The notes under the pieces are model-generated. The model was given only the letters and a program-made list of their open reading frames with translations. It ran no database searches and was not told the origin of the DNA. A stretch of 61,861 nucleotides of DNA from a virus (taxonomy: Duplodnaviria; Caudoviricetes), in IMG/VR virus record IMGVR_UViG_3300020405_000676, positions 1-61,861 of that record. One strand, written 5' to 3'. Position numbers and translations under genes: made by a program. Positions 8,495-29,369 of the stretch are shown here, piece after piece. Position 1 is the first letter of the stretch. Each line of letters begins with the position of its first letter.

Positions 8495-9162
8495 AGTGAT
8501 GCATAATAATCTGTAAGTCTTGTTTCCCAAAGGTCACAATACATTTCAAACCTTGCACCTTCTATAACAAACTCTTTAAATTTATTATCTCTACTGACCA
8601 TAAGTATAACACCTTTTTTAATATTTGTGTCATACATTTCATTATGTGCCATTGCATAAGCACAACATTGTAAATAATAGTCTTCAATCCATTCTTCTTT
8701 TTTAATTTTTTTAGATGTTTTAAAGTCTATAATTGCTTCTTCGCCTTTATGTATTCCAACACAATCTGTTGTCCCAGCATATAATCCAGGTGCAATTAAT
8801 CCTATTTCTGTTCCCCAAACTTCATCTATATTTGTAAATCCTTCATTTATAACTAAGTCCGACATTTGTTTTGCCATAACACTAACCATATTAGTACCAA
8901 ACTCAACTGTCTCGCCCAGAATATATTTTTCTATTGCATTATGTACTTTTGTTCCTAGTCCTGCACTTTCTTTACTTACTCGATTTGCTTCTTCTTCGCC
9001 TACACGTTTACGCCATGCAATTAAGGCTGTTTTGTCTGAAGTCTTGTCTAATACTGTTGTTACACTAGGCACAGGTACATTGTCATCTCCGACATACTGT
9101 CTTCCTTGCGGAGTGCTTTTGCGTTCTAGTATTTTGTAATCGAATTTAGGTTTTAAAAGCAT
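8491..9162 (-). CDS. PD-(D/E)XK exonuclease (Cas4-like phage exonuclease)
   Basis: PSVTTVL, GTKVH, YAGTTD, IIDFKTS, QCCAYA motifs. Confidence 0.9.
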   Translation of the reverse strand: MLLKPKFDYKILERKSTPQGRQYVGDDNVPVPSVTTVLDKTSDKTALIAWRKRVGEEEANRVSKESAGLGTKVHNAIEKYILGETVEFGTNMVSVMAKQMSDLVINEGFTNIDEVWGTEIGLIAPGLYAGTTDCVGIHKGEEAIIDFKTSKKIKKEEWIEDYYLQCCAYAMAHNEMYDTNIKKGVILMVSRDNKFKEFVIEGARFEMYCDLWETRLTDYYASL

Positions 9163-9180: not shown

Positions 9181-9209
9181 ATTATAGCATTTTCTAGTAT
9201 TTTAGTCAA
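9181..9209 (-). promoter_or_regulatory. Sigma70-type promoter
   Basis: TTGACT-N17-TATAAT upstream of the exonuclease. Confidence 0.8.
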
Positions 9210-10291
9210 CCTGTCATATATTCAGCAATTTTATCGTGCCAATTTACGCCATAATGAATAAGGTCTCTAGCACATGCATTCTTAATTTGTTCAGGTGTAT
9301 GTATATTTGGATCTACAATTTGTAATTCTTTTCCTAATATAGGTATATACATTTTTGTTAATGGAGGTGCAATTATATCCCAATTTATAAAATCTTTTAT
9401 TCCTTGAAATGTATTCTTTGCATACATTTTTAGTTCAATATCATGTGCTTTACAAAAATCTTCTATAGCAGATATTGTAATAGATGTGTACATATTTTTA
9501 GTTTCCATATTAATTGCAGTATGAATATGCTCAAATTCTTTCAAAAATACTTGTTGATAATGTACACCGCCTTCTATGATTCTTCTGTTACTAATGTGTG
9601 CTGTACGTTCACTATGTGGCACACAGACATAAGTTTTTTCAAACGGTTTTTGTTCATATAGTTGTCTTAATAAAAGATAAACTTCCATAGGACCACTTGC
9701 ACTTAGTCCACAATTAAAAATAGGTAAATTTTCTCCTATTTTATTCCACCATATATCCTTTTCTGCTGTACCTACTCCTTGTGTATGGCTACAACCAAAC
9801 ACAGGTATAAATTCATTTGGTACTAAATCTTCAAACTCCAAATCACTACGCAAACCAAGAGAGTTTATATTGTAAGTGATTGGATTTCCTTTATCATATG
9901 TTGACCACCATTCTTCTTCAGACATTCCTATATCTGTAAAGTTTCTAACAACTCTGTCTCTTATCTTTGCGTTGTTAGGTTCTTTTACTTCATCTCTTAC
10001 ATCTGAAAATGCTTCTAGCCATTTTTTTGTTGTAAAAGGAGTATCTAAAGAAAGATGTTTGTATTGTTTTGGTAAATCTTCTAAATGTATAGAGTAGTCT
10101 CTATGTCCAATAAGGTCATCCTTGTAAAATTGCCAAGAAGCAGGAACAAAATCCTCTTCTGTATAAATGTAATCTCCTATATGCATTCTTGTGATACCCG
10201 CTGTAAAGGCTTTCACAAAATCAGGAAAATCCATTCTTCTTTTTTCTAAAAATGGTGTTAGCAGTTTTTCGTATAATTCACTTTTTCTCAT
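9206..10291 (-). CDS. SGNH/GDSL-hydrolase-like protein (paralog of neighbour)
   Basis: NSLGLRS, VFGCSHTQG, N-x-G, C-terminal DLIH. Confidence 0.6.
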   Translation of the reverse strand: MRKSELYEKLLTPFLEKRRMDFPDFVKAFTAGITRMHIGDYIYTEEDFVPASWQFYKDDLIGHRDYSIHLEDLPKQYKHLSLDTPFTTKKWLEAFSDVRDEVKEPNNAKIRDRVVRNFTDIGMSEEEWWSTYDKGNPITYNINSLGLRSDLEFEDLVPNEFIPVFGCSHTQGVGTAEKDIWWNKIGENLPIFNCGLSASGPMEVYLLLRQLYEQKPFEKTYVCVPHSERTAHISNRRIIEGGVHYQQVFLKEFEHIHTAINMETKNMYTSITISAIEDFCKAHDIELKMYAKNTFQGIKDFINWDIIAPPLTKMYIPILGKELQIVDPNIHTPEQIKNACARDLIHYGVNWHDKIAEYMTG

Positions 10292-11415
10292 AGTACAACT
10301 CTATCCAAGTATTTATTTCCAGGCTCTTTAAATAAATTAGCGATATGGCTATGCCATGTTACACCGAAATGAACACAATCTCTGGCTACATGTTTTTGCA
10401 TTTCTGAGAGAGAATGTTTCTTAGGGTCAATAAACTTAATATTTTTTAATTCAAATGTGGCTGTACGCATTGAGTTTGGCACAGGCATTTCCCACTCTAT
10501 ACAATGTTTGAGATGTCCGTATGTAAAAGTTGCATAAATGTTTAACTCTATATCATTTATTTTACAAAAATCTAATAATGCACTATAACAAATACTTATA
10601 TACATGTGCCTTGATTCTGAATTAAAACATTGATTTAAGTGAAGCCACTCATCTAATGTGCTTTGATAAAACGATCCACCTTCGTGCCATCCTTTATTGC
10701 TTATGTGTGCTGTTCTTTCACAATGAGGTAAAACAGCATACGCCTTCTTGAAAGGTTTTTCTTTGTAAAGTTTTTTTAATGTAAGTAGTGTTTCTACAAC
10801 ACCATTAGATGACATTCCCATATTAAACCTAGGCAAGTCCTCATCAAGTTGATTGAACCATAAATTTTCATATCTAGTACCAAGTCCAAATGTATTACTG
10901 CAACCAAAAACAGGAATAAATTTATTTGGTTCCAAATCTTCAAATTCTAAATGACTACGCAAACCTATGGAATTTATTTGATAAGTTACATCCTCATAAT
11001 TTTTTCTCCAATTTTCTATACTCATTCCTACATTTAAAAGTTTGTCTAATGTTCGAAATTTTCTTTGTAAATAATCATGGTCTTTTAAATATTTTGAACG
11101 TGTTGCACTTTCTTCACGTAATGGTCTTCGGTAATCATAAATCATAGGAAGGTATGCTGAAGAATCCATATTTAATTGTGAATATGTTTTTGGGCAGTCT
11201 GCTAAATTAATACTGTATGCTTCATATTCTTCTTTGAACTCAGAAGAGGAGTACCTTTCTCTAATGTCTTCATGTAAATCTTCTACATCGTAAGGAGTAC
11301 TCCATGCATGTAAATGGCTTATCGAGCCTGTAAAAGTTTTCATATACTCAACAAAAGATAAATCTTCTTTCTTTTTGTACGGATTGGTAAGATTTTCTAG
11401 CAGAGAGGTTTTCAT
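10288..11415 (-). CDS. SGNH/GDSL-hydrolase-like protein (paralog of neighbour)
   Basis: NSIGLRS, VFGCSNTFG, N-x-G, C-terminal DCVH. Confidence 0.6.
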   Translation of the reverse strand: MKTSLLENLTNPYKKKEDLSFVEYMKTFTGSISHLHAWSTPYDVEDLHEDIRERYSSSEFKEEYEAYSINLADCPKTYSQLNMDSSAYLPMIYDYRRPLREESATRSKYLKDHDYLQRKFRTLDKLLNVGMSIENWRKNYEDVTYQINSIGLRSHLEFEDLEPNKFIPVFGCSNTFGLGTRYENLWFNQLDEDLPRFNMGMSSNGVVETLLTLKKLYKEKPFKKAYAVLPHCERTAHISNKGWHEGGSFYQSTLDEWLHLNQCFNSESRHMYISICYSALLDFCKINDIELNIYATFTYGHLKHCIEWEMPVPNSMRTATFELKNIKFIDPKKHSLSEMQKHVARDCVHFGVTWHSHIANLFKEPGNKYLDRVVL

Positions 11416-11434
11416 ACTAGTATTTATTTTTGAA

Positions 11435-11782
11435 TTATGTAGGTAGGTCTGCTTTTACGTCTTGCATTGCCTGGTCACCTGCCATAGAAGCAACATCTAC
11501 TTCAGGTTCTTCTTCAGCATCTGGCTCTGCCATATCATTTGGGATTTTGCCTTTAGGTGTAATTACTTCATCATCTACACTTTGTACAACATCCATGTCA
11601 TTTAATGTTTGTTTTAATTCGTCGGTGCTCAACAGAAAACCATCTTTTCCCATAAGGTCTCTAAAAACTTCTGTGGGGATTTCGTCCATATCACCGCCAA
11701 CTACTTGTGCAAGTCTATCTCTGATAGCAATTTGCAAGTCGTCGAAGTAACTTTCGAAAAGTATTACTTCACGGATTTTCAT
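11435..11782 (-). CDS. Hypothetical acidic protein, putative head-associated
   Basis: Begins MKIREVILFE. Confidence 0.75.
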   Translation of the reverse strand: MKIREVILFESYFDDLQIAIRDRLAQVVGGDMDEIPTEVFRDLMGKDGFLLSTDELKQTLNDMDVVQSVDDEVITPKGKIPNDMAEPDAEEEPEVDVASMAGDQAMQDVKADLPT

Positions 11783-15198: not shown

Positions 15199-16887
15199 CT
15201 ACTTTTTCTTACGTCCGGACTTCATGTTGGCACACCAGTGATACATTTTTGACTTCTCACCACTGCTGTCTTTTGCTTTTTTGCGTAGACTTGTTACTGA
15301 ACCTTTACAACTTGCACCTGCACGTTTTACTCTGCCTGGACGACTTTTGCCTTTCTTTTTGCCGTCAGCAAAATTTTCTATAATCTCTGCTGGAATTACA
15401 TCTCTGCCAACACGTTTTGCTTGATACACTCTGTGAAAACCATCAAGTATTGTTTTGCCATCTACATCTAACAGTATTGGTTCATCTAAATCAACACCTA
15501 CATCTGGATCAACATCTATTACTCTACTAAAACGGTCATCATGTGCTTCGTCATCTAAGTCTGCTACTTTGACTTTGATTAGTTTGGTCTTTTTGCCTTT
15601 GATATAATCTTTAACAGCAGGATTTAGATTTCTTTCATCTAATTGTTCCAGTTCATCTATAAATGGTTGTGGGTCCATGTCTTGATTTTCAAACTCATCT
15701 ATAAAGTTTCTTAATTCAACTTGGTATGCTTTTTTTAAAATTCTTGGATCTTCGTTGCCAGTAAAGTTGCTAATCTTTTTTTTAACTGTATTCATATTGT
15801 CATCAAAGCCATGCTCTTCTTCTCTGTCTTGGCTCATATAGTCCCAAACATCTTTAAGCATTTTAACACCATTTATATTTACATACTCTCTTTTTACATA
15901 AGTGCCTGGAAAATTAATAACTTCTGCTTCTGACATTTTAGATTTAAGTAAATCTTTAAAATAGTTTTCCTGCATTACTGCTCTATCACTTGTTTTATCT
16001 TTGAATACATCCATTACTTTTTCTATGTCTGCGTCAACTATAATTGCAGGAACACGTTTAATACCTAGTATATTAGCGGCATCATATCTATGATGACCAT
16101 TTATCAAGTATCCTCTTCTATCTAAAATAAAAGGTCTGTCTACTTTTTTAAGAAATACGTCTTCTGCTTTTTTACTTAATCCATCTACACGTTGAGATTG
16201 TACAGGTTTTATTTTGTCTATACTAATTGTACCTTCTTTGTATTTTAAATCTGATTTATCTAAATGTTTTCTTCTAATTTGTGGCAATTGGTTTCTATCA
16301 AAATGTTTATCACTAACACCTCTATTATAACTTTCTTCTATACCTTTTCTTAAACGTATAACACCACAGGCAAGTCTTTCTCCTGCATTACCTGTTTTTA
16401 AACTTTCTTCATCTCCACCCAAACCTAAGTCATCTTCGTCTGCATGTATAACCATTGCTCTGCCTACAACACTTCGGTCACCACTCAAATCAACACGTCT
16501 TGCAACAATTTTGAATCTAGCAATACCTTGTTCATCTGCTACAATATTGCCTAAGTCGCCTACATGTCCTTGCATTAAGTCACCATGGTCAACTCCGTCT
16601 GGATTGTAATGACCTCCAGCACTATCACAACCATCACTAAGGTCGCCAAACTCATGTATATGTATTCCGTGTTTGCCAGGTTTAAGTCCTTTAATTTGTC
16701 CTCTGATTATTGTAGGTTTGTTTGGTTCTTGTTTTAAAACAATACCGCCTGATATATCGCCTTCAACATGTTCTAGTTGAACTACTGCTTTTACTATTTC
16801 TTCTGCTTCACTGATTGTGTTTAAAGATTCGCATTGGCAACTTTTTTCTTTTGTTCTAGGACAACTTTTGAATTCTGATGCTCTCAT
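15199..16887 (-). CDS. Cu/Zn superoxide dismutase fused to two ParB/Srx-like domains and a basic Cys module
   Basis: HGIHIHEFGD, SAGGHYNP, HVGDLGN, VIHADEDDLG, GNAGERLACG; LINGHHRY and ILDGFHRV. Confidence 0.9.
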   Translation of the reverse strand: MRASEFKSCPRTKEKSCQCESLNTISEAEEIVKAVVQLEHVEGDISGGIVLKQEPNKPTIIRGQIKGLKPGKHGIHIHEFGDLSDGCDSAGGHYNPDGVDHGDLMQGHVGDLGNIVADEQGIARFKIVARRVDLSGDRSVVGRAMVIHADEDDLGLGGDEESLKTGNAGERLACGVIRLRKGIEESYNRGVSDKHFDRNQLPQIRRKHLDKSDLKYKEGTISIDKIKPVQSQRVDGLSKKAEDVFLKKVDRPFILDRRGYLINGHHRYDAANILGIKRVPAIIVDADIEKVMDVFKDKTSDRAVMQENYFKDLLKSKMSEAEVINFPGTYVKREYVNINGVKMLKDVWDYMSQDREEEHGFDDNMNTVKKKISNFTGNEDPRILKKAYQVELRNFIDEFENQDMDPQPFIDELEQLDERNLNPAVKDYIKGKKTKLIKVKVADLDDEAHDDRFSRVIDVDPDVGVDLDEPILLDVDGKTILDGFHRVYQAKRVGRDVIPAEIIENFADGKKKGKSRPGRVKRAGASCKGSVTSLRKKAKDSSGEKSKMYHWCANMKSGRKKK

Positions 16888-19800
16888 TATAACGTACCTT
16901 TCTTAAGACTCAATTGAGCCCATTGCTCTCTACCAGCACCAGCCTGTGTAGGTATTATACTTATAGATGTTGCCATTGCATGACCACTACGTCTAAATGC
17001 AATTAAATCATTTTCATTTTTAATCATAGCAGTTTTTTGATTAGGAATACTTATCAAAAGCAATCCATCAAAATCATCTCTATCTTTATACCATAGGAAA
17101 TTTTGTTTGAGATATACATTCTCAATTTCTTCTGCGTTAGTATTGTTTGCTATTACATCTGCAATAGGACCAGCATAGTTTTCCATATCCATAGAAAATA
17201 AATCTAATGCAAGTTGTCTTCTAATTTTTTGATTGTCTGAATCTGTAGTTGGTAAATCTTGATTTATTCCATTTATAAATTTTGAAAATCCTAAACTTCC
17301 TCCAACGGAACCAATACTATCAACTACAGTTGGAATACGGTCTGCATATTTTTCTATTATGGCTCTTTTTGCTTTTTGGCTTCCGCCACCATAACCAATT
17401 CTTCCACCAGTACTACTAGTAGCCGCTTTTAATTCTACTTTACCAATACCTTCAATTTCTAAATCACCTTCACCAGATGCTAACCTTATCTTATTACTTA
17501 AACAGGCAAGTCCATATTCTCCTGGTCCTTTTTGATTTACACCAACACCGTATGCTGTTAATGAAACAAATGCTTTGGTGCTTATGTCATCACCGAATAC
17601 ATTTGCAAATGTGTTTAATGGCTTATCTAATTCTTGTATGTTTACAACTGTACCAGTCTTTTCTAATCTATCTATAAACTTGCTCATAGTACCATAATCA
17701 CTGTCTATGCTACCAATAATTTTTGTTACATCTTGTATAACTTTTGCTTTTTGTTTATCCGATAAAGGTTCATCCATCAAAGGAAAACTAAATGCTTTGT
17801 CTAATGTTTTACCTATATGTTCACTGTTGAGCAGTTTATAAATTCTATCTAACAAATTTGCATGTTGCTCATTTGTAGCATCTAATCCACTTATAGTTTT
17901 TATTATATTGTCTTTCTCGGTACTTAAATCTGTATATTCATTTAAAAGTTTAGTTATATGTTGTTTGCTCCATTCTTGCAAATTTACTTTTTTCTTTTCT
18001 TCTTCTGGCAAAGCATCAACATAAAATCTTAAAATGTTTCTAGCACATGCATCATCTCCTGCATCTGCTCTTAATTGTCTAAATGCATCTAGCATAGAAG
18101 GTAAAGGTATTGCCTGATATGCCAACATTTGTTTTTTCAAATCACCAACAGGAAAATGGTCTGCTAAAAGTTTGTTTATAATTTCAATTCTGTTAAAATC
18201 ATTAACACTTTCTTTTGCCATTTTAGTTGCTGTTGCGTACATAACTGCTTTGGCATCTTTACCATAACGTTTTTCAAAATCACCTTTAGACTTCTTCATG
18301 CCTTTTACATATTTTTCTTTGTCTTTCTTTTCGTCTTTTGTTAAAGGTCTTTCATTTACTTTGCTTTCTTTTTTCTTTTTGCCAGCACAATGAGCCTTTT
18401 GACTAAAGCCTTTTGGATTACTGCAATTGATACTTGCTTTGTATTTCTTACTCCACTTTTCTAATACTGTTGATTCATTTATAATACGCACCTGTTCTTC
18501 TAATGGTAATTTGTCAAACTTATCAAAAGCACTTTCTCTTCCAAGCATTCTTGCTCTGGCTTCTTGAGGATCAGGATTTTGACGTCGCAACGTCTCACGT
18601 TGCATTAATTGTCTACCTAAGGCTAAATGACCTTGGAAGTCATTTGGTGCTGAACCTTCTAATTTTTCTTTCATCATGCTTTTTAAAACAGCCTTTTTGA
18701 AATTTTCATCATTGTCTGGATTTTTAAGAAAATCTACTAATCTGTTTACGTCGGGTCTGACCATATAATTTTGCATACCCGCATTCATCATCCTATCAAA
18801 TTCAATATATTTGGATCTGACTGCTTCGTAATCTGCTTCTGTGGTGTTTTCGCCATCATTTCTGCCTCTTCTACTTGGTGGAGGTTGAGAGCCCGTATCA
18901 CCGTAAATAGCACCTACATCATCTCCAGGACTGCCGTCTGGATTTTTTCTAAAATAGTTGCCAGCACTTACTGTATAATTCATTTTGATATATTCTGCCG
19001 CGGCTTTTACAGATGCTACCCATCTTGGTAAACAACAAACTGTTGGATCTGGCTGTGGTCTCCATTCGTGGTCACCGTCAAATGTTCTAGCAACTTTCTC
19101 CAACATGTTTGGGCCTTGGTTGTCTATACCCTTTTCTATTTTAAGGAAGTTTGCCAAGTTGTTCCAATTTGCGGCATCTTGAATGCTGTTAGATGCTTGA
19201 CCATCCATGTGTTCAACGCCAGCGGCATCTATAATTTTTTGGTCTGCTATTACTTGTACACCTTTTGGTGTGCTTTCCATTACTTCTCTAATTGCTTTAT
19301 AGAAACCATTATTATTTTTTTCCATGTTTTGAACAACCATAGACTTAATCTTTTCTGATTCTGCACCATGGTACTTTTTAAAATCATATGCCGCAAGTGC
19401 TTTGGCTTCATTGCCTTCATCTAATATCCAATTAATAGCACTACTTCTATTTAAAGGCTCACCTGAATATTCATTTGCTAATTTTTTAGAAGGGATAAGT
19501 TCTTCGACATCTCCCATTCCTGCTCTGCCGTCTAATTTACCAGTGAATTCGATTTGCATTGATTCTGCAATGATGTTTCTATCTCTGCCATCTAGCATCT
19601 CATATTTTTCTTCATTTCTTAATGTTTTATAATGTATTTTATATGTATCACCAAACTTATCCATAAGTTTCACATAATTTTTTAATCGCCAGTTTTGACT
19701 CATATCACCAGTTTTTTGTCTTTTTTGGATTTGGTCCATTCCTTCTATAGCATCTTGCAATGGTCCCCAATGTGCGGATGGTACAACATAAAAGACTCCT

Positions 19801-22800
19801 CGACTTTGTTGGTTAACTCTTTGTGCTCCTTCTATTACTTCTCTTTGCGTTCTAGAATCTACATTTCCGTTTACTATAGTATCAAATAATTCTTTTTCCA
19901 TAAACGAAAGTGAATGTGCAGGAATATTAATTGTTGCAAATGAACTGTTTCTGACATTTTTCTTAAAGTTATCTCTGTCTTTTGTTAATTGTTGTTTACG
20001 TTTGATAGCATCATCCTGACTGTCAAATCCATTGTCTACAAAAATTTTGTCTAAACCACGCATGAAGTCTCTAATTCCTTCGAATCTAGACTTTATAGTA
20101 TTTTTTATTTCATCAAATTTATAATAATAAGGATAACGTTCTTTGTTTCTATAATAAGAACCCAACATTTCTCTTAATGTGTCTGTTACATAATCATTGA
20201 TATTGTGAACAGTTCTACTGTCTGTGGTATTCCTAACAATATCATCTAACGTGCCTTGTATATTTTCATATTTGTAAGTTCTAACACCTAGGAATTGGTC
20301 TCCATCTCTTTCGCCTAATAAATCCATGTACTCTTCTTTTTCTTCATCTGACATATTAGGTAAGTCTCGTACTTCATCTCTACTGATTCCTAATATGTTT
20401 GACCATTCATCATCATCTGATTTATTTGTATCATAAAATTTAGCAATTATAGGTGCCATTTTTTGCAATGTTTCAACTGCTTTGGATTTATCTGTTTCAT
20501 ATTGTTGTTCTAAAAACGCGAATCTTCTTCTCAACAACATTGTGTAATTGCTTAATGCTACATCTTCGTAAGAATCGTCACTATAGATGTTTGGATTATG
20601 ATTCCTACTAACAGGTTCATTGTAAGAATCAAATTGTTTTACATACTGAAGCAATTTAGTATAACTTGGTCTATCAAAAATCATTCCTGTTTGCAAGAAT
20701 AATGGTTTACTGCTATATCCTGAAGTTGTCAATTTGTTATAAAAATCGTTAAACTGTCTTTTTTCACTTGCGTCTTTTATTAAAGATGAAATTTCACTTT
20801 CAATATCAGCAGTATCACCTAGCCTATCTGGACCTAAACGAACATCAATTGCCATTTGTGTAAGTTTTTTCAATACCTTTGAATCAAACTCTTTATTGTT
20901 GGCAACATTCCACATGCCTTTTGCTATTGCTTCTACTTCTGGTGCTGAAACAAAGTCTGGTTTTCTTATAATGTCTTTTTGAAGTAATTTATTAATACCA
21001 TCTTTAACAATTTGTACTTTTGTTTGTTGATTTAATTTTACAGAACCTGTTTTTCTGTGGTCCCAAACTAAAGATTCTATTGCTGTTATTACATTAAATT
21101 CAATTTCTCTTTCTGTGATTTCATTTTTCTTTATGAAACTTCTTAAGGCACCTATACTTTTTGCATTAGGCTGTTGCCTTGCTAATCCAGATGATACATC
21201 TATTGCCAACATACCCAATGCTTCACTGAATTTTGATAAACTTTCACCTCTCAATTCTATTGCTGTTTCACTAGGTGGATTCATTGCTGGTCTAAAGTAT
21301 GCTTTTATTGACCGGTCTTGTTTAACTTCTTTTACTCCGCCTCTTTTTGAATATTTTATTTTGTCTAATTTTCTTTTCAAAGAACTGTCGAAATCGTCTA
21401 AACTATCTGAAGTGTTTTCAAGATATTCCATCCATTGTTTTTTCCACTTGATGTCTGCTTTTGGATCTAAACTGTCAGTTGCTCTTTGCAATCCTTCCAT
21501 TGCACTCAACATAAGTTTAGTAAATTCTAAGTATTTTCTAGAACTTATCATTGCTTTTGATGTGTCTAACAAAGGATCTGCAGAAACATCTGAATACTGT
21601 CCTTTTAGATTTTCAACTTCTTCAACATCTCCTTGACTGATATCACTTGCTTTTCTTAGTAATCTTGATAATGCTTTTACATAATCGCCTTGATATTGGT
21701 CTGTGTGCCCAGCAACCATTGTGGTAGCATATCTTACTACTGCCTTAAATACTTTATCAAAGTCTTGTTCGTAGTCTTCGCCACCACCTATTCTAAACTC
21801 TATAAGATTTGTGTTAGTTTTAGAATCAGTTTGATTCTTAAAATGTATAGAACGGAATTTGTCTTGGCTTATAGCCTTTTCTAAAAATGCTTCTGCTTTT
21901 TTTATTCCTTCTGAGCCACCTTCTTGTTGCAAAGTTTTTACAGCATCTTCTAATTCTCTGTATTGGCTTTTTGTATAAGTGTTACTGCCTCTAAAAAATG
22001 TGCCTAATAGATATTGGTCGCCTAATAATACAGCCATTTTAACTTTATTTGCTATTACTTTGCTTGAACCTGGTTTATAGTTTACAGTTTCACCATCTTG
22101 TGGATTGTAACTCATTGTGACGTGTAATCCAGTACTGCTGTTTGTAAGTGCTCCTTCACTTTGCAGGAACTCAAAAAACTTTTTCATTTCTGCTAACATT
22201 CTTCTTGGAGTACTAAACACTGGTGATATGATTTCTGCACCTGTTCCATATCCGTCAATACTACTGTCTGACTCTACTGCATAATTTTTTGTACTACCAC
22301 TAGTGTTACCATAGTCGCCATGTTCCACAGAGTCATCTGAAAAAGCACTATTATTTCTAACAAATGCTGAAACAAGTTCGGCAACTTCACCTAGATTGTT
22401 TCCTGTGCTGTAATCAATACCATAATCATCACAAAATGAACTCATGCTGTACCAATTGTCATTGATCCAATCGTCATAATCATGATTTTCACTGGCTTCT
22501 TCATATGCATTTTGTCTTACATCGTCATCTTCTACTGCTAATTCTCTTAAATATTCTCTAAAGTCTGACCCTCTGTATTCATCAACATATTCTCTTGCCC
22601 AATTTTCATCTTCATATCCGTACAATTCTGACAGTTCTTCAGCACCTTCTTCTTCAAATCTTTCATCACCGTATTCTTGTCTCAGTACGCCTTCTCTGTA
22701 ATCATCCCAATCTGCTTCTTCTATACCTGAATCGTCTATATAATCGTTGATGTAATCTTCGTCATCTTCACGTTCGTTGACCCACTCAGCAATGGCATCC

Positions 22801-23564
22801 TCTATGTAATCATCTACTTTGTAATCATAAAGCCACTCTGTATATTGTTCTGATATGCTATCCCAATCAACACCTCCGAACTCTTCATCGACTTGATTAA
22901 GAGTCATATTGTCTACATCATCATCTACACCTTCTATATTTTCCCAAACAGTTTCTGCCTCCCAGCCACAACGTATTTGTGCATCTAGTGAACTGTTTAT
23001 TACTTCTTTTCTATTAAAGTTTATTTCGAATAATTTTTCTTCTGCTTCTTTTAAACCCAATCTAGCAAGTCTTTTAATTTTCTTCTTGCCGTCTTTTACA
23101 AGTGAAGATAATTTGTTTGCATTTTTCTGTGATAATTTTTTAACTTTTTTATTTTCCTCTAAATCTACAAACACCTCATCTTTAGGATCTAGTAATTGAT
23201 ATTCGCCCTTTTTATCTTGTACAACAACTTTGTCTGGTTGTGGTTTGTCTCCAACTTTACTGACAACTTTTCCTAATACTTCGCCTTTTTCATCTTTGTA
23301 TTCTGCATCTACTTCTAATTCTCCTGTTTTAATAGGAGTAAATTTTGGTTGTTCTTGTTCTGGTTCTTTAACATCAAGTCCGGGTGTTGTTGTTGGACTG
23401 CCTAAGTCTTTTTGTGGAGGCGTTTTCTTATCTACTGTTGGACTCTTAGCATTTGCTTTTGCATTTGCTCCTGTTGATTGTTGAGATGTTGGAGTACTTG
23501 AACCAGGCTTCATACCATATTCAGTTAGTATAGACTCTATAGTTCTAACGTCTTTAAACTTCAT
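16887..23564 (-). CDS. 2225-aa multidomain protein: putative amidoligase (COOH-NH2 ligase type 2) plus C-terminal PD-(D/E)XK-like domain
   Basis: GWEAE...DSSI...EIISPV...STGLHV...IEFR amidoligase motifs; GPGE...GDL...VELK nuclease-like motif. Confidence 0.7.
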   Translation of the reverse strand: MKFKDVRTIESILTEYGMKPGSSTPTSQQSTGANAKANAKSPTVDKKTPPQKDLGSPTTTPGLDVKEPEQEQPKFTPIKTGELEVDAEYKDEKGEVLGKVVSKVGDKPQPDKVVVQDKKGEYQLLDPKDEVFVDLEENKKVKKLSQKNANKLSSLVKDGKKKIKRLARLGLKEAEEKLFEINFNRKEVINSSLDAQIRCGWEAETVWENIEGVDDDVDNMTLNQVDEEFGGVDWDSISEQYTEWLYDYKVDDYIEDAIAEWVNEREDDEDYINDYIDDSGIEEADWDDYREGVLRQEYGDERFEEEGAEELSELYGYEDENWAREYVDEYRGSDFREYLRELAVEDDDVRQNAYEEASENHDYDDWINDNWYSMSSFCDDYGIDYSTGNNLGEVAELVSAFVRNNSAFSDDSVEHGDYGNTSGSTKNYAVESDSSIDGYGTGAEIISPVFSTPRRMLAEMKKFFEFLQSEGALTNSSTGLHVTMSYNPQDGETVNYKPGSSKVIANKVKMAVLLGDQYLLGTFFRGSNTYTKSQYRELEDAVKTLQQEGGSEGIKKAEAFLEKAISQDKFRSIHFKNQTDSKTNTNLIEFRIGGGEDYEQDFDKVFKAVVRYATTMVAGHTDQYQGDYVKALSRLLRKASDISQGDVEEVENLKGQYSDVSADPLLDTSKAMISSRKYLEFTKLMLSAMEGLQRATDSLDPKADIKWKKQWMEYLENTSDSLDDFDSSLKRKLDKIKYSKRGGVKEVKQDRSIKAYFRPAMNPPSETAIELRGESLSKFSEALGMLAIDVSSGLARQQPNAKSIGALRSFIKKNEITEREIEFNVITAIESLVWDHRKTGSVKLNQQTKVQIVKDGINKLLQKDIIRKPDFVSAPEVEAIAKGMWNVANNKEFDSKVLKKLTQMAIDVRLGPDRLGDTADIESEISSLIKDASEKRQFNDFYNKLTTSGYSSKPLFLQTGMIFDRPSYTKLLQYVKQFDSYNEPVSRNHNPNIYSDDSYEDVALSNYTMLLRRRFAFLEQQYETDKSKAVETLQKMAPIIAKFYDTNKSDDDEWSNILGISRDEVRDLPNMSDEEKEEYMDLLGERDGDQFLGVRTYKYENIQGTLDDIVRNTTDSRTVHNINDYVTDTLREMLGSYYRNKERYPYYYKFDEIKNTIKSRFEGIRDFMRGLDKIFVDNGFDSQDDAIKRKQQLTKDRDNFKKNVRNSSFATINIPAHSLSFMEKELFDTIVNGNVDSRTQREVIEGAQRVNQQSRGVFYVVPSAHWGPLQDAIEGMDQIQKRQKTGDMSQNWRLKNYVKLMDKFGDTYKIHYKTLRNEEKYEMLDGRDRNIIAESMQIEFTGKLDGRAGMGDVEELIPSKKLANEYSGEPLNRSSAINWILDEGNEAKALAAYDFKKYHGAESEKIKSMVVQNMEKNNNGFYKAIREVMESTPKGVQVIADQKIIDAAGVEHMDGQASNSIQDAANWNNLANFLKIEKGIDNQGPNMLEKVARTFDGDHEWRPQPDPTVCCLPRWVASVKAAAEYIKMNYTVSAGNYFRKNPDGSPGDDVGAIYGDTGSQPPPSRRGRNDGENTTEADYEAVRSKYIEFDRMMNAGMQNYMVRPDVNRLVDFLKNPDNDENFKKAVLKSMMKEKLEGSAPNDFQGHLALGRQLMQRETLRRQNPDPQEARARMLGRESAFDKFDKLPLEEQVRIINESTVLEKWSKKYKASINCSNPKGFSQKAHCAGKKKKESKVNERPLTKDEKKDKEKYVKGMKKSKGDFEKRYGKDAKAVMYATATKMAKESVNDFNRIEIINKLLADHFPVGDLKKQMLAYQAIPLPSMLDAFRQLRADAGDDACARNILRFYVDALPEEEKKKVNLQEWSKQHITKLLNEYTDLSTEKDNIIKTISGLDATNEQHANLLDRIYKLLNSEHIGKTLDKAFSFPLMDEPLSDKQKAKVIQDVTKIIGSIDSDYGTMSKFIDRLEKTGTVVNIQELDKPLNTFANVFGDDISTKAFVSLTAYGVGVNQKGPGEYGLACLSNKIRLASGEGDLEIEGIGKVELKAATSSTGGRIGYGGGSQKAKRAIIEKYADRIPTVVDSIGSVGGSLGFSKFINGINQDLPTTDSDNQKIRRQLALDLFSMDMENYAGPIADVIANNTNAEEIENVYLKQNFLWYKDRDDFDGLLLISIPNQKTAMIKNENDLIAFRRSGHAMATSISIIPTQAGAGREQWAQLSLKKGTL

Positions 23565-23869
23565 TATCTTCTGCCACGCCTTAAATTTGTACTTCTATTT
23601 AGACTTCTTAATCTTCTTGATGCTGGATTTAGTCTTTTTGTTCTGTTTGCTTTTCTGCTAATACGTTTACCCATTCTTGCTTTTGTTCTTTTTAAGGTCA
23701 TACGTTTTTTCATATTAATAGGTGCTGAACATTGTGAAGGTTTGCTCACAACCCTACCTTTACGTCTACCGCTAGTACATCTAACGGCACGTTTAATTTT
23801 TTTGCCCATCCTACGCCAGACCATTCTGGACTCAAGAATATCTTCGTCACTAATATCTTCGTATCTCAT
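23564..23869 (-). CDS. Very basic Arg/Lys-rich small protein
   Basis: Acidic 13-aa leader ending ILE, followed by a protamine-like basic region with two Cys. Confidence 0.8.
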   Translation of the reverse strand: MRYEDISDEDILESRMVWRRMGKKIKRAVRCTSGRRKGRVVSKPSQCSAPINMKKRMTLKRTKARMGKRISRKANRTKRLNPASRRLRSLNRSTNLRRGRR

Positions 23870-25615: not shown

Positions 25616-26158
25616 TTAGCCTAATCGACCTTTTCTATCTGGCAAACCTCTGCCTGCAATAATATTTCCTACTGATTGACCTATTTTACTGCCCATTTGT
25701 CTGCCTGATTTTGCTTGTTTTACGCCTGGAATTTTGTTTACAATATCTGGAATGTCAATTTTTATATCAGAATCTGCTTTGTTTCTATGAGTAGATTGAT
25801 TCCACCCTCTTTTTAATTTAGTTTCAGGTCGTTCATATCCCATGTTAGCACTTGAAAAGTTTCTACCTGTATCGTCGTCATCACTGTCTTTGCTTTTAAC
25901 TTTGCCGTCAGTCCATTGCTTTAATGCGTCTTTAACTGCTTTACCTATTGTCATACTAGGAGGTCCGGATAGATATAACCCTCTAGCAATCATTTGAATT
26001 TGTGCAGTAGGTACGTTTACGAACTGAGGTATCCTAGATCCAACAGGTCCTATTTCGTCATCAAGTTCTTGTGCGACTTCATCGTTAAGTTCTTGGCCTC
26101 TAATTTTTCTAGGCTTACCGTCATCTTGAACTTCATTTATGATATCATTTATTAACAT
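25616..26158 (-). CDS. Hypothetical late protein
   Basis: MLINDIINE leader; TATAAATA at 26164-26171. Confidence 0.75.
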   Translation of the reverse strand: MLINDIINEVQDDGKPRKIRGQELNDEVAQELDDEIGPVGSRIPQFVNVPTAQIQMIARGLYLSGPPSMTIGKAVKDALKQWTDGKVKSKDSDDDDTGRNFSSANMGYERPETKLKRGWNQSTHRNKADSDIKIDIPDIVNKIPGVKQAKSGRQMGSKIGQSVGNIIAGRGLPDRKGRLG

Positions 26159-26166
26159 AACTGTAT

Positions 26167-26982
26167 TTATACCTGTTTACGTCTACCACTAGCCCAATAA
26201 CCTGCTATTGCGCCTATGCCTGCTCCTGTTCTACTACTTAATTTGTTCCTAGTAAGTTTAGGAATAACTTTACTTCCAACATAAGCACCGGCGGCAGTAC
26301 CAACGGCTGTTTTAGCCAAACTTCTATCTGACTTAGGAGCATTACTAAACTTTCTTTCTCGTTTCATTGCAACTAAATGCTGATAATTTTCACTACCTCT
26401 GCCTTTTATTCTTAACTGTTGTAATAATTTTGATACAACTAATTGCTTTTGGCTGTATTTTAAATCTTTCCAATCAATAATCAAACGTCTTAACTGCTTG
26501 TACAATGCAGTTTTTATTTGTAATTGGTTTTCCAAACGTATAAAGAAAGCAGATGCTTCACTTTTGCCTGGCTCTATTGTAGCCATCTTCTTTAAAAAGT
26601 TATAGTATCTTCTATTTTGAAAATTTAAACTGTTTAAAAATGCTTCATCTTTCTTTTTGATGTTTAAACTTTTATAATCAGGATGGTCAACTGCAAATGC
26701 CAACATGTATAAATCTGTTGAAGTGGTTCTAAATACTGCAAAAGGTCCAAACTGTACTGTTTTTCTTGCAACTGCTACTGCATAATCTCTTTGCTCTTTA
26801 TCATACACAAACATCAACAACATTAAAGTATTCAAATACAATAAGTCTGCAATAGTTCTGCCTGTTAAATTTCCAAATTGACTTGTATATCTAAAAAGTC
26901 TACTTTCACTTATCTCTTGGTCAATTAATTGAAAATCAAATTCGTACTGTGACACTTTATGCTCCTGGTCTTCCTGTTCCAA
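26167..26982 (-). CDS. Hypothetical protein with glycine-zipper-like C-terminus
   Basis: 271 aa; GTAAGAYVG and GAGIGAIAG repeats. Confidence 0.7.
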   Translation of the reverse strand: MEQEDQEHKVSQYEFDFQLIDQEISESRLFRYTSQFGNLTGRTIADLLYLNTLMLLMFVYDKEQRDYAVAVARKTVQFGPFAVFRTTSTDLYMLAFAVDHPDYKSLNIKKKDEAFLNSLNFQNRRYYNFLKKMATIEPGKSEASAFFIRLENQLQIKTALYKQLRRLIIDWKDLKYSQKQLVVSKLLQQLRIKGRGSENYQHLVAMKRERKFSNAPKSDRSLAKTAVGTAAGAYVGSKVIPKLTRNKLSSRTGAGIGAIAGYWASGRRKQV

Positions 26983-28240
26983 AGTTTAATCTACTAAACT
27001 CTAATCTATCTACAAGTTTGAGTGCGTTGCCCATTCTGTCTACAGCAACAAATCCTTCTTCGCCTGTAACTTCGAAACCTTTTTCTGTTTCTACAAATGT
27101 ACCTATTTGTCTAATCTGTTCTAGTTTTTTAACTAATTTTACTTTTGCTTCTATAATTTTTAAATACAAATCATATACAGCAACAATTCCAGGTACATGT
27201 TCTTTTATAAATTTTACACCTGCAACCATATCTCCTGTTGCTTGGTCTATTTTGTTTTGTGTTTTATAATTATCTATCTTTTTAGTCATAAATTCAATAT
27301 ATTTTTGCACAAAGCCTGAAGCAAATTTTGTAGGCTCATCAAATTGTCCTGCTCTAACTTGATTGTTCACATGTGCTTTTAATTGTTGTAAAAAATCTTT
27401 ACCGATTAAATCATTGCCTTTTTCTAACCAACTAAATGTTTCTGCATCTATGCTTTTCATGTAATTACTTGCTTCTGTAATTGCACTCATTATGTCTTGA
27501 CTTTCTGATTTTGTTAGTGTTACAGTACCACTTAAATCTTTAATAATTGCATCTCTGTGCCAAACACCATTTGCTTGTCCTAACACACTACTATCAAAAC
27601 CAAACTTGGCTTCTGTGTCAGCAAGTGTAGGGCCTCCTACATATTCTGTGTGCCAAACTATGCCAAAGCCTGCACTACTAATTTGTTTACCCATATCGCT
27701 GTCTTTGGGTACTGCATAAGTTATTGTGTTTGGTTTGAAGACAATATGTTCTTCTCCATCTATGGTTGCTGTTCTAATATCATCGCCTGTAAACAACATA
27801 TCACCTTGTGCAACTGTGTCCCAATTCAATCTCTTTAAAAAGTTTAATGCAAGTTTTAATTTTTCTCTTAAACCACTACCGTCTTTGTCGCCTACATCTG
27901 CATGATTTATATCGATGTCTTTATTTGTAAAATTAATTTTAGGTTTTTTTGCAAATACTCCTTTAGTACCTACAAAAAATTTCTTTGTTTCAGGATCTTT
28001 ACCTGCTATAATGGCTGGAGCACCATCCCATTTTGTTGTCATTGATACTGGAGTACTTGTATTGCCTTCAAGCATTTCATGTAGACTGTATAGATAATCT
28101 ACTGCTTCTTTGGCTCCATCAAAACCTTTATTGAAAATATTATCTTCTAAATGTTCTAAATGTGTATTCTTTGCTTCGTCAAGTACACTTTCGGTTAGCA
28201 GTTGAGTTACCAAAGGTTTTGATATCTCTAGGAACTTCAT
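26957..28240 (-). CDS. RNA-ligase-like covalent nucleotidyltransferase (DUF6267-like)
   Basis: TKWDGAP (KxDG motif I), QGD, EGFV (motif IV), LKLV (motif V); N-terminal NTHLEHLED. Confidence 0.65.
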   Translation of the reverse strand: MKFLEISKPLVTQLLTESVLDEAKNTHLEHLEDNIFNKGFDGAKEAVDYLYSLHEMLEGNTSTPVSMTTKWDGAPAIIAGKDPETKKFFVGTKGVFAKKPKINFTNKDIDINHADVGDKDGSGLREKLKLALNFLKRLNWDTVAQGDMLFTGDDIRTATIDGEEHIVFKPNTITYAVPKDSDMGKQISSAGFGIVWHTEYVGGPTLADTEAKFGFDSSVLGQANGVWHRDAIIKDLSGTVTLTKSESQDIMSAITEASNYMKSIDAETFSWLEKGNDLIGKDFLQQLKAHVNNQVRAGQFDEPTKFASGFVQKYIEFMTKKIDNYKTQNKIDQATGDMVAGVKFIKEHVPGIVAVYDLYLKIIEAKVKLVKKLEQIRQIGTFVETEKGFEVTGEEGFVAVDRMGNALKLVDRLEFSRLNFGTGRPGA

Positions 28241-28241
28241 T

Positions 28242-29369
28242 TTAAATACCTGCTAAATTCTTTAAGTTCTCTATCTCTACTGCTTCGTTGATTACTTTTG
28301 TAGGTATAAGCAACACGTCATCACTTGCGTTTTCTGAAAGTACAACTTTGTATCCTAAATCTTCCCAAGTCATGTTCCAATATTCTAACACTTTGTTCAT
28401 AAATTCAAAGGCTTCCATTCTCATTGCTCTTGCCTTTTGAACAAACTGTGAATACCATTGTGGGTTTGCTTTGTTTAATCCACTTGCTTTTAGCATAGGT
28501 CCCATAGCATCCACATACACATCAACATTTACATTCTTGGCTTGTTGTGCCTGTAAGTTTTTAAGCAATTCTTCTGCCGCGGCAATCTTATCATCTACTG
28601 ATGCAGATTTATCTAAGATTTTCTTTTTATGGATATCTAAATCAAATGCTTTAGCCATTCTATTTACATCTTTTCTAGGCTCTGCTACTTTAGGTCTCAT
28701 AGCACCTAAGGCTTTTGAACCTAATCTACCTAATGCCGCTCCGGCTACTGCACCTGCTTTTTCTGTGCCTGTTGCTTCTGGGTCTGCCATAGTCTTACTT
28801 GCTAAAGGTCCGCCCATTGCCTGAACTGCTCTGTCTTTCATTTTATCCATTGTGCTTTGTGTTGGTGCAACACCTTTTGCGATTGCCATTAAGTCTTGTG
28901 AAAGTTGGTCTTTGTCTCTAAGTGGATATGTGCCAGGCATATTTGTAATGCCAGGTGTTTGACCTTTTTCATCAGCAATATCTTTAAATGGCAAAAATTG
29001 TCCTGGTTCAGGTTTTTTACCTGTTTTGATATCTACATTTTGCCAAGCCCATTTACCTGACTTTTCATCTTGTTGATATTGATAAAACATTCCTGTTGGA
29101 TCTGCAACAACACCCATGTTAATTCCTTTCATTTGGGCTTTGTCTTGTGCATACTGACCTATTACGCCAGTCTTTTTAGCACCAGCCTGTCTGCCTGCAG
29201 TTTGTTTATCAATTTGTGCCTGCCTTCTTTTTTGTCTTGCCATGTCGGCAAATCTACCGGACGCCATTTGGTCACTAGGAAGGACACCACCTGCGTCGGC
29301 TACACCTTTTTTGTATTGGTTTACGGCATCACGAGCAGGATTTTCTAATATAATATCATTAATAATCAT
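28242..29369 (-). CDS. Hypothetical late protein
   Basis: MIINDIILE leader; C-terminal LKNLAGI. Confidence 0.75.
   Translation of the reverse strand: MIINDIILENPARDAVNQYKKGVADAGGVLPSDQMASGRFADMARQKRRQAQIDKQTAGRQAGAKKTGVIGQYAQDKAQMKGINMGVVADPTGMFYQYQQDEKSGKWAWQNVDIKTGKKPEPGQFLPFKDIADEKGQTPGITNMPGTYPLRDKDQLSQDLMAIAKGVAPTQSTMDKMKDRAVQAMGGPLASKTMADPEATGTEKAGAVAGAALGRLGSKALGAMRPKVAEPRKDVNRMAKAFDLDIHKKKILDKSASVDDKIAAAEELLKNLQAQQAKNVNVDVYVDAMGPMLKASGLNKANPQWYSQFVQKARAMRMEAFEFMNKVLEYWNMTWEDLGYKVVLSENASDDVLLIPTKVINEAVEIENLKNLAGI

Follow-up and report, generated by a model that had tools for sequence, protein, structure and literature searches.

A predicted head-cargo polyprotein with ligase-like and nuclease-like domains in a marine jumbo myovirus

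The stretch of DNA analyzed in this study, referred to as the window, comprises 61,861 nucleotides (nt) of the uncultured Caudoviricetes virus record IMGVR_UViG_3300020405_000676. Its minus strand carries a 6.7-kb gene, whose unbroken open reading frame (ORF) at 16887..23564 encodes a protein of 2225 amino acids (aa) and 252 kDa, hereafter the giant. An earlier note, made from the sequence alone, had described this frame as a protease-processed fusion of a ligase, basic modules, and a nuclease, and the single open frame of that length is borne out. The gene is real, since 237 matching proteins were found, many of them colinear with the whole query. On balance, we favor the interpretation that the giant is a head-cargo polyprotein of a jumbo myovirus from the T4 superfamily, targeted to the capsid and processed by the prohead protease; as its joints resemble the sites of T4-type head proteases, the chain is probably loaded into the head and cut, and its pieces are injected. 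The predicted features are listed below from the N-terminus onwards, with ^ marking a candidate cleavage point and fractions giving the aligned sequences that retain a site.

16887..23564, minus strand: whole ORF, predicted cargo polyprotein, based on the frame and the full-length homologue family
23520..23564, minus strand: leader, aa 1-15, MKFKDVRTIESILTE^Y, predicted capsid-targeting propeptide ending LxE (alignment A1)
23154..23519, minus strand: Pro/Thr/Ser-rich linker and small conserved domain (GxVVSxVG..PDxVVVQD..GEY), aa 16-137, kept in all shortened architectures
23025..23153, minus strand: basic segment, aa 138-180, pI 10.4, with candidate sites LKE173^ (33/43) and LFE180^ (43/43)
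21585..23024, minus strand: predicted COOH-NH2 ligase of the glutamine-synthetase fold, Amidoligase_2-like, aa 181-660
22305..22940, minus strand: acidic (pI ~4.05) all-helical insert within the ligase, aa ~208-420, from composition and DSSP of the model
18540..21584, minus strand: unmatched middle region, aa 661-1675, conserved in the alignment; aa ~1386-1665 are absent from 1902-1918-aa variants
18459..18539, minus strand: junction segment, aa 1676-1702, FDKFDKLPLEEQ...STVLE^, with candidate sites LEE1690^ (38/43) and VLE1702^ (39/43)
18351..18458, minus strand: basic mini-module A, aa 1703-1738 (KWSKKYKASINCSNPKGFSQKAHC...), 4.1 kDa, pI 10.0, present or absent as a cassette
18210..18350, minus strand: basic mini-module B, aa 1739-1785 (RPLTKDEKKDKEKYVKGMKKSKGDFEKRYGKDAKAVMYATATKMAKE), 5.5 kDa, pI 9.8, matching phrog_12788 (E 8.7e-8), also a cassette
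17973..18209, minus strand: adaptor, aa 1786-1864 (LLADHFPV...GDDACAR...NLQE^), which precedes different C-terminal cargo domains
17937..17972, minus strand: spacer, aa 1865-1876, WSKQHITKLLNE^, aligning with the leaders of stand-alone C-domain proteins; model pLDDT 51-61
16890..17936, minus strand: C-terminal domain, aa 1877-2225, predicted PD-(D/E)xK-type nuclease with signature E2016, D2034, E2044, K2046
17517-17519, 17463-17465, 17433-17435, and 17427-17429, minus strand: codons of E2016, D2034, E2044, and K2046, respectively

The N-terminus of the giant is likely a capsid-targeting leader of the T4 style. Residues M1, K2, E15, and Y16 are invariant in alignment A1, and the LxE motif ending at position 15 is found in all 41 sequences having this column (43 aligned). 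The pattern MK-x10-[LI]xEY fits 16 of the 17 distinct N-termini of multi-module proteins in 80 related loci, the exception being cut by a contig end. The giant thus starts with the kind of short leader ending (L/I)xE that is known from T4. In T4, gp21 recognizes L/I-X-E and cleaves behind the Glu, the first ten residues of IPIII are enough for head loading, with positions 8 and 10 governing the processing, and the capsid-targeting sequence may be the way in which T4-like phages load varied proteins (PMC9026906). This sequence is all that the T4 internal proteins have in common, and a foreign nuclease could be packaged within the DNA of viable phage (PMC3012670). Downstream of the leader, 30 of 43 sequences retain the site DLEE137^.

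We lean towards internal processing as well, based on module gain and loss at the joints and on stand-alone leaders that align with them. Between E1702 and E1785^SV... lies a cassette zone, where modules A and B are each cleanly present or absent among homologues; some homologues hold different inserts in the same zone, and the cassette borders keep Glu even where the modules differ. Thus the comparison of module order proposed in the earlier note revealed whole modules gained and lost at (L/I/V)xE joints. At the adaptor end, the joint NLQE1864^ is kept in 37 of 43 sequences. The 80 related loci further contain 50 ORFs for stand-alone C domains with 32 distinct N-termini, 30 of which carry a leader of 8-19 residues ending (L/I)xE^Y(D/E/T)DL (for instance, MRYKDLVE^YEDL and MRLRNLFE^YDDL). 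The boundary between leader and mature protein in these ORFs aligns with the internal TKLLNE^YTDL of the giant. Similarly, the bond that follows the leader in module-A proteins, (L/I/F)xE^KWS, is the same as the internal STVLE^KWSKKYK. The joints E1864 and E1876 fall into the least confident stretch of the C-terminal model (pLDDT 51-61).

The likely protease would be a prohead protease of the T4 gp21 type acting in trans. A related record of 60% completeness (G001) encodes a 212-aa Peptidase_S77 protease of this type (88.1 bits), located in a T4-like head-core block (L085:512-3176) between an acidic 306-aa core-like protein and a 367-aa scaffold-like protein. The scaffold-like protein has 18 (L/I)xE sites compared with 8.6 +/- 2.6 in shuffled sequences, none of 2000 shuffles reaching 18, to which helical periodicity could contribute; the protease itself has seven such sites compared with 2.0, a number reached in five of 2000 shuffles. 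Homologues of gp21 are also annotated in Agrobacterium phage Atu_ph07 (gp204) and Ralstonia phage RsoM2USA (ORF379). Taken together, a gp21-type protease and a capsid-targeting leader point to the phage head as the place of action.

We consider it fairly probable that the giant is packaged in the virion. Its ligase domain has a stand-alone homologue in Atu_ph07, AUZ94978, whose gene is two genes away from the portal gene. Based on the gene order and lengths in the supplementary tables of the Atu_ph07 paper and on a match of masses (57.93 kDa calculated, 57.94 kDa listed), AUZ94978 was identified as gp196. This protein was detected in purified Atu_ph07 virions with 14 unique peptides and 30.2% coverage (Supplementary Table S5, PMC6102473). 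AUZ94978 starts with MRWQDISSKKLTE^, and its RsoM2USA counterpart, RsoM2USA_26, starts with MKLIQKLSE^. The RsoM2USA paper analyzed ten abundant bands and does not mention ORF26.

The ligase fold of aa 181-660 is the best supported part of the prediction, and we regard it as highly likely. Carboxylate-amine (COOH-NH2) ligases form amide bonds in an ATP-dependent manner. Amidoligase-type motifs had been noted at ~22970-21790, and this is where they were found: CGWEAET at aa 199-205 (window ~22950-22970), VESDSSI...GAEIISPV at aa 430-449, STGLHVTMS at aa 477-485, and LIEFRIGGG at aa 587-595 (~21780-21800). Residues E202, E204, E431, D433, E444, H481, R525, E589, and R591 are invariant in all 43 sequences of alignment A2. 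The isolated segment aa 400-680 matches Amidoligase_2 (PF12224) with 19.0 bits (E 0.0014), below the gathering score of 22, and the whole chain yields no hit. The sole matches to aa 321-655 in the phage database are hypothetical proteins of 500-523 aa from RsoM2USA and Atu_ph07, which pass the Amidoligase_2 cut-off (34.3 bits for RsoM2USA_26 and 30.2 bits for AUZ94978) and align with the ligase domain of the giant at E 4e-18 and E 2e-14, respectively. Further, Foldseek matched an AlphaFold2 model of aa 185-660 (43 sequences, mean pLDDT 85.2) to glutamine synthetases (GS) with E 2.5e-4 and probability 1.0, so that the model has a GS-like catalytic fold. The homologues passing Amidoligase_2 and the structural match thus support the original assignment of a ligase.

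The motifs stand as described, whereas the ligase core is not continuous: it is split by the acidic helical insert of ~200 aa, which separates strand 1 from the remainder and has helices at model residues 38-221 (aa 222-405, DSSP). The RsoM2USA and Atu_ph07 homologues likewise have an acidic stretch in this position. No relatives of the ligase were found in three related records of 56-60% completeness. The known carboxylate-amine ligases of the GS fold (GS, glutamate-cysteine ligase, YbdK, PafA/Dop) have ~10-13% sequence identity to the ligase of the giant, and differ from it in that the latter has the 200-aa acidic helical insert and sits within a polyprotein.

For the C-terminal domain, a nuclease fold is quite probable, judging from a conserved signature and a structure model. 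The scan of 1.84 billion representatives by HMMER with aa 1780-2225 produced 207 proteins at E <= 0.001, many of which are ~350-aa proteins matching only aa ~1870-2225; the stand-alone C-domain proteins have ~356-366 aa. In alignment A4 (34 sequences, 21-57% identical to the query), G2013, E2016, G2033, D2034, E2044, K2046, G2054, and Y2159 are invariant. They include GPGE (aa 2013-2016), GD (aa 2033-2034), and ELK (aa 2044-2046), which lie downstream of LLNE (aa 1873-1876) and together form the (E)...D...(D/E)xK signature of the PD-(D/E)xK enzymes. In the AlphaFold2 model of the C-terminal end (pLDDT 77.9 overall and 81-98 in the signature part), DSSP assigned a helix at model residues 235-242, which holds E2016 at its start, followed by strands at 247-249, 256-258, and 262-269. 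D2034 (model residue 255) is at the edge of the second strand, and E2044 and K2046 (265 and 267) are in the third, that is, D and ExK are placed as in an alpha-beta-beta-beta core.

Comparisons with known nucleases gave weaker signals. Foldseek with the C-terminal model found no match in PDB at E <= 0.001, and the weak VIA matches, to the restriction enzymes MspI, HinP1I, HhaI, PvuII, and NaeI, are below the level that the tool calls meaningful; these enzymes are the only structural matches that span the sheet part (model residues >~250) with ~100 or more residues aligned (101-154). The model is a 446-aa chain of two parts, which weakens matches of a single domain. Its BFVD matches are limited to three uncharacterized proteins of uncultured phages. 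ESM Atlas places the C domain among unnamed viral clusters at 0.96-0.97, the nearest named clusters being R-HINP1I, SmaI, and Eco47II at 0.79-0.80, in a range that the tool calls often chance. The A4 profile retrieved nothing relevant from the PDB sequences, and no Pfam family is shared by more than one of the 34 members at E <= 10. Hence the PD-(D/E)XK-like tail proposed in the earlier note is upheld by the signature in 34/34 sequences and by the secondary structure, but not by a sequence profile linking it to a known family, and it is best called plausible. From signature and model we infer a possible nuclease activity. Small type II restriction endonucleases such as the five named above share E...D...ExK on helix, strand, and strand, whereas the C domain of the giant has no sequence-profile link to them, no methyltransferase partner was seen, and it has an additional N-terminal helical part and belongs to a predicted phage cargo with a leader.

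Two short basic modules had been delimited at ~18460-18210, and they were indeed recovered as A (aa 1703-1738) and B (aa 1739-1785). Of their boundaries, which had been described as (I/V/L)xE sites, the third one is AKE^S in the giant, while most homologues have L, I, or V at P3. A total of 3551 shorter metagenomic proteins match aa 1695-1790 at E <= 0.001. The Pfam labels in this set include 5'(3')-deoxyribonucleotidase, Cu/Zn superoxide dismutase (SOD), zeta-type and AAA kinases, nucleotidyltransferases, a cytidylyltransferase with a peptidoglycan-binding domain, DUF6267, ParB, and others, and proteins of 54-146 aa on contigs of ~290-330 kb also belong to it. Among the best 119 of the 3551 hits, module A is present in 55, module B in 74, and both in 26; in the same 119, [LIVMF]xE occurs within 14 residues upstream of module A in 46 of 59 occurrences. 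In seven of 12 distinct N-termini module A directly follows the leader with (L/I/F)xE^KWS, for example ...ITE^KWSQKYK.

Small ORFs of cyanomyophages also contain parts that are 80-86% identical to module A over ~30 aa. In S-SM2 (L003:2174-2602) module A forms the end of a 142-aa protein, the gene of which lies between gp16 and gp17; this protein starts with MKTLKQFLKE, a 10-residue leader ending LKE. In P-TIM68 (L004:2051-3172) module A is part of a 373-aa protein encoded beside the major head protein gene (gp23). By eye, the latter protein also has the same stretch as a cassette insert of one homologue of the giant (P0118), and it ends with a Gly/Asn-rich tail. An 87-aa protein (P0279), of which the longest contig has 333,708 bases, is identical to an internal stretch of the giant (18210-18470, minus strand, with the start within module A). 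A near-complete genome with this stretch may therefore be present in public assemblies, and some gene callers may split the frame there.

The adaptor that follows the cassette zone has invariant residues Q1812, P1820, P1822, F1828, G1836, and R1842. After its NL(Q/N)E joint, homologues have the nuclease-like domain, a Cys motif with a Cu/Zn SOD block, or another tail.

The word-seeded full-length search, in which 8000 candidates were scored, identified the 237 homologues, which have 1223-3894 aa (E <= 0.001) and come from marine and other metagenomes, on contigs of up to 322 kb. Taking in the search for shorter proteins as well, contigs of 318-334 kb were among those carrying homologues. Details were taken from the best 120, many of which align colinearly with the giant along the whole query (100%), with identities as low as 33%. 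An alignment of 24 sequences is conserved along the entire chain, interrupted by a few indel-rich zones. The architectures observed are leader, N region, cassette, adaptor, and C domain (669-941 aa, retaining aa 1-134/169 of the giant); leader, ligase, ..., adaptor, and C domain (1338-1695 aa); forms of 1902-1918 aa lacking aa ~1386-1665; the full form of 2100-2500 aa; and numerous forms in which another tail comes after the adaptor. This tally by phmmer includes fragments, and the shortest modules may be missed in it. Hence the family combines several unrelated effector-like domains with shuffling among relatives, as expected of polyvalent proteins. No full-length homologue was found in a cultured phage, the tblastn search of 50,697 phage records giving 11 records, each covering at most 14% of the query. 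Pfam and PHROGs scans of the whole chain produced nothing useful, and those of segments only the sub-threshold Amidoligase_2 match and phrog_12788; searches of PDB sequences with the single protein and with the profiles of A1 and A4 yielded nothing relevant. Pfam also detected no peptidase or other hallmark domain of polyvalent proteins on the whole chain or on eight overlapping segments. As ~1000 aa are without assignment, a divergent peptidase or hallmark domain is possible there.

According to the mechanism that we favor, the 15-residue leader ending LTE^Y would bring the chain into the prohead core, like the T4 capsid-targeting sequence, and a gp21-type prohead protease would cut after Glu at a few conserved (L/I/V)xE joints. 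Candidate cuts are E15; one or more of E137, E173, and E180; E1690 or E1702; E1738; E1785; E1864; and E1876. The products would be a large piece containing the ATP-dependent carboxylate-amine ligase with its acidic helical insert and the unmatched region of ~1000 aa, two basic peptides of 4-5.5 kDa, probably located on the packaged DNA, a 9-kDa adaptor, and a 38-kDa nuclease of the PD-(D/E)xK type. Together with the DNA, these pieces would leave the head and start to work early on in the infected cell, the ligase forming an amide bond on a target from the host or the phage, and the nuclease acting on DNA. We infer all these steps, that is, targeting, cleavage, ejection, both enzyme activities, and their targets, from sequence.

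Several observations speak against this mechanism. The giant has 25 (L/I)xE sites compared with 23.5 +/- 4.3 in shuffled sequences, and 792 of 2000 shuffles reach 25; the motif count, being at the chance level, was therefore rejected as evidence, and only the placement and conservation of particular sites are informative. Conservation alone does not mark a cut either, because the well-conserved sites E459, E589, and probably E180 are inside or at the edge of the ligase fold and are kept for structural or catalytic reasons. Some of the joints are poorly kept: LLNE1876 is found in 26 of 39 sequences and E1738 in six of the 13 that have the module, and the E1785 boundary of the giant, AKE, is off the motif. 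Peptidase_S77 is absent from the window, which is a 17% fragment, and among 11 records (its own and ten related ones, all 17-60% complete) it is present in one. The Atu_ph07 virion preparation was PEG-purified and yielded a list of 131 proteins, in which head and tail are not told apart (PMC6102473). The T4 late-promoter word TATAAATA is not enriched (four matches compared with 9.1 expected) and hence provides no evidence on timing. The middle region of ~1000 aa has no match in Pfam, PHROGs, or PDB sequence profiles and no usable ESM Atlas hit. Finally, a nuclease stored beside the genome would need a safeguard.

Part of this evidence would fit a polyvalent protein that enters the head and is then injected as an essentially intact chain, with at most the leader removed and the internal joints being leftovers of gene fusion. 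Such a protein has a precedent in the N4 virion RNA polymerase, which is packaged unprocessed (PMC5512222). Fossil leaders are expected after the fusion of formerly separate cargo genes, and the chance-level motif count, the incomplete retention of LLNE1876, and the AKE sequence at E1785 agree with this explanation as well. On the other hand, VLE1702 (39/43) and NLQE1864 (37/43) are kept among sequences that are 33-40% identical overall, the cassette borders keep Glu, and basic peptides of 4-5 kDa would make poor fixed linkers and yet are present in 3551 other proteins. We consider the intact form rather unlikely. It is still less probable, in our opinion, that the giant is a cytoplasmic multi-enzyme that is never packaged and whose N-terminal motif and joints serve another protease or are domain linkers. 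Its gene does lie among genes of replication and nucleotide metabolism as much as among virion genes, late expression has no promoter support, and the detection in virions is limited to the stand-alone homologue gp196 and does not extend to the full-length form. However, that homologue does belong to the virion proteome of Atu_ph07, the leader M(K/R)-x-...-(L/I)xE is common to the giant, the stand-alone C domain, and the module-A proteins and fits the published T4 rule, and cyanophages encode module A in small ORFs of structural clusters, either beside gp23 or between gp16 and gp17. A further alternative is a virion protein with a purely structural role (as a fibre, tape measure, or inner-body scaffold) and no enzymatic one, which could be suspected from the very large size and from the ~1000 aa with no recognizable fold, but we regard it as very improbable: the ligase residues are invariant in 43/43 sequences and the E-D-ExK signature in 34/34, no repeats or coiled-coil-like periodicity were seen in the sequence, and the modules also occur as separate small proteins. 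The fibre or tape-measure variant was rejected because of these invariant enzymatic residues and separately existing modules.

Among known systems, the closest to the predicted head-cargo polyprotein are the T4 internal proteins and Alt combined with the idea of polyvalent proteins. IPI, IPII, IPIII, and Alt share with the giant a short N-terminal (L/I)xE leader and a gp21-type protease (found here in relatives), and in both cases diverse cargo is placed behind a conserved leader. Alt is an ADP-ribosyltransferase acting on host targets (PMC9026906, PMC3012670). The T4 cargo consists of separate genes for proteins of 8-75 kDa, whereas the giant, known from sequence, would unite several cargoes in one 252-kDa chain with internal joints, and its leader has 15 residues compared with 10 in T4. 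The T4 cargo listed in the cited parts of PMC9026906 and PMC3012670 includes no GS-fold ligase, no restriction-enzyme-like domain, and no basic Cys/His peptides. With polyvalent proteins, as described by Iyer et al. (2017, PMC5512222), the giant shares a large multi-domain chain, unrelated enzymes, domain shuffling, and presumed delivery with DNA. These proteins are associated with ParB-like domains, and here a ParB-like region is encoded by the next gene. Polyvalent proteins are proposed to be cleaved in cis by a zincin-like metallopeptidase domain of their own, whereas the joints of the giant fit cleavage in trans by a protease in the prohead. The main text of that paper contains none of the words amidoligase, COOH-NH2, and glutamine synthetase.

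The inner-body and ejection proteins of phiKZ, 201phi2-1, and SPN3US, which are processed by gp21-like proteases, offer another parallel: these jumbo phages possess many head-internal proteins that are cleaved behind Glu in a motif of three residues, and the propeptides hold several redundant sites (PMC9026906). Their motif is S/A/G-x-E in contrast to L/I-x-E here, the lineage differs judging by the terminase, and no sequence similarity of the giant to these ejection proteins was found in the phage database. The nearest homologues of the ligase, gp196 of Atu_ph07 and RsoM2USA_26, share the ligase core, the acidic stretch after the first strand, and the LxE leader, and gp196 is found in virions; however, both are single-domain hypothetical proteins of 500-523 aa without the middle region, basic modules, adaptor, and nuclease-like domain. 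Searches of full-text literature found no published description of the family of the giant, and a survey of jumbo phages (PMC7824862) has the word amidoligase in a single place, its reference list.

Cargo injected together with phage DNA decides the first minutes of infection, and to our knowledge such cargo is almost unknown outside T4, P1, N4, and the phiKZ group. If the proposed mechanism is true, a single processed chain would serve abundant marine giant phages to deliver a ligase together with a nuclease, an antioxidant enzyme, and peptides that coat the DNA. The rule of a leader plus joints would then predict cargo from metagenomic sequences, where the two basic modules alone are found in 3551 shorter proteins. 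GS-fold amide ligases and restriction-enzyme-like nucleases, for which no description as virion cargo was found in the literature searches, would be new cargo classes and candidates for host take-over or counter-defence.

A broader and more speculative scheme, which we put forward tentatively, is that marine T4-superfamily phages run an open cargo system, where (L/I)xE leaders and portable basic Cys/His mini-modules mark head proteins and the joints double as safe recombination points. In this way, cargo genes could be exchanged, joined into giant polyproteins, and separated again, the 2225-aa protein being one cassette train that draws on a pool of ligases, nucleases, superoxide dismutase, deoxyribonucleotidases, zeta-type kinases, and nucleotidyltransferases. 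According to this scheme, the ligase would tag a host protein or a small molecule, similarly to PafA, and, until release, its acidic insert might serve to retain the basic peptides or as a DNA mimic.

The genomic context agrees with the T4 superfamily. The source record was judged to be a virus contig of ~17% completeness; the large ORFs of the window are all on the same strand, and the G+C content is 31-40%. PHROG and Pfam scans of 55 neighboring ORFs identified genes typical of a T4-superfamily myovirus, among them ribonucleotide reductase, UvsX, UvsY, a gp32-type single-stranded DNA-binding protein, a DnaB-type helicase, primase, the large terminase, a 927-aa tail sheath, and tube and head-closure proteins. 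The large terminase is 57% identical to that of Pseudomonas phage PA5oct and 49% to that of Atu_ph07. Thus, judging by the terminase and the neighboring genes, the source phage is a marine jumbo myovirus related to PA5oct and Atu_ph07, from the Rak2-related branch of the superfamily.

The gene next to the giant on its downstream side contributes one more line to the feature list.

15199..16887, minus strand: downstream gene, 562 aa, with a Cys motif, Cu/Zn SOD (Sod_Cu E 3e-45), a ParB-like region (ParB_N weak), and a basic tail

In this protein the Cys motif CPRTKEKSCQC is followed by Cu/Zn SOD, the ParB_N-like region, and, after IIE^, the basic Cys-containing tail; a second ParB-like stretch was noticed by eye only. 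Its aa 7-324 are 67% identical to P0186, 50% to P0219, and 50% to residues 2018-2336 of P0237, a protein of 2408 aa in which the SOD block comes after a VSE^ joint. Judging from these alignments, the SOD block of the downstream gene is a module of polyproteins of the giant's family in relatives.

Directly upstream of the giant, a 101-aa extremely basic protein (23564-23869, minus strand), whose stop overlaps the start of the giant, begins with MRYEDISDEDILE^SRMVWRR and looks like another small basic cargo protein with a leader. Leader-like N-termini (MKIREVILFE^, MKTSLLE^, MRKSELYE^, MLINDIINE^, and MIINDIILE^) were also observed in ORFs without an assigned function in 9206-11782, 25616-26158, and 28242-29369 (minus strand). 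Of the 56 ORFs across the window, 13 contain an [LI]xE whose last residue is at position 7-16, compared with an internal background of 11.8%, a count that is suggestive only, and the neighboring leader-like ORFs may form a cluster of cargo genes. A 427-aa DUF6267 protein is encoded at 26957-28240 on the minus strand (PF19782 E 1e-101; phrog_455), and this family is also fused to module B in metagenomic proteins of 858-863 aa. The 891-aa product of the gene at 4726-7401 (minus strand) has an N-terminal Mtd_N domain of the major tropism determinant (27.6 bits) and is probably a fibre or receptor-binding protein. The adjoining gene at 7454-8530 (minus strand) encodes a zinc-type alcohol dehydrogenase/oxidoreductase (ADH_N_2 and ADH_zinc_N), which is unusual in a phage.

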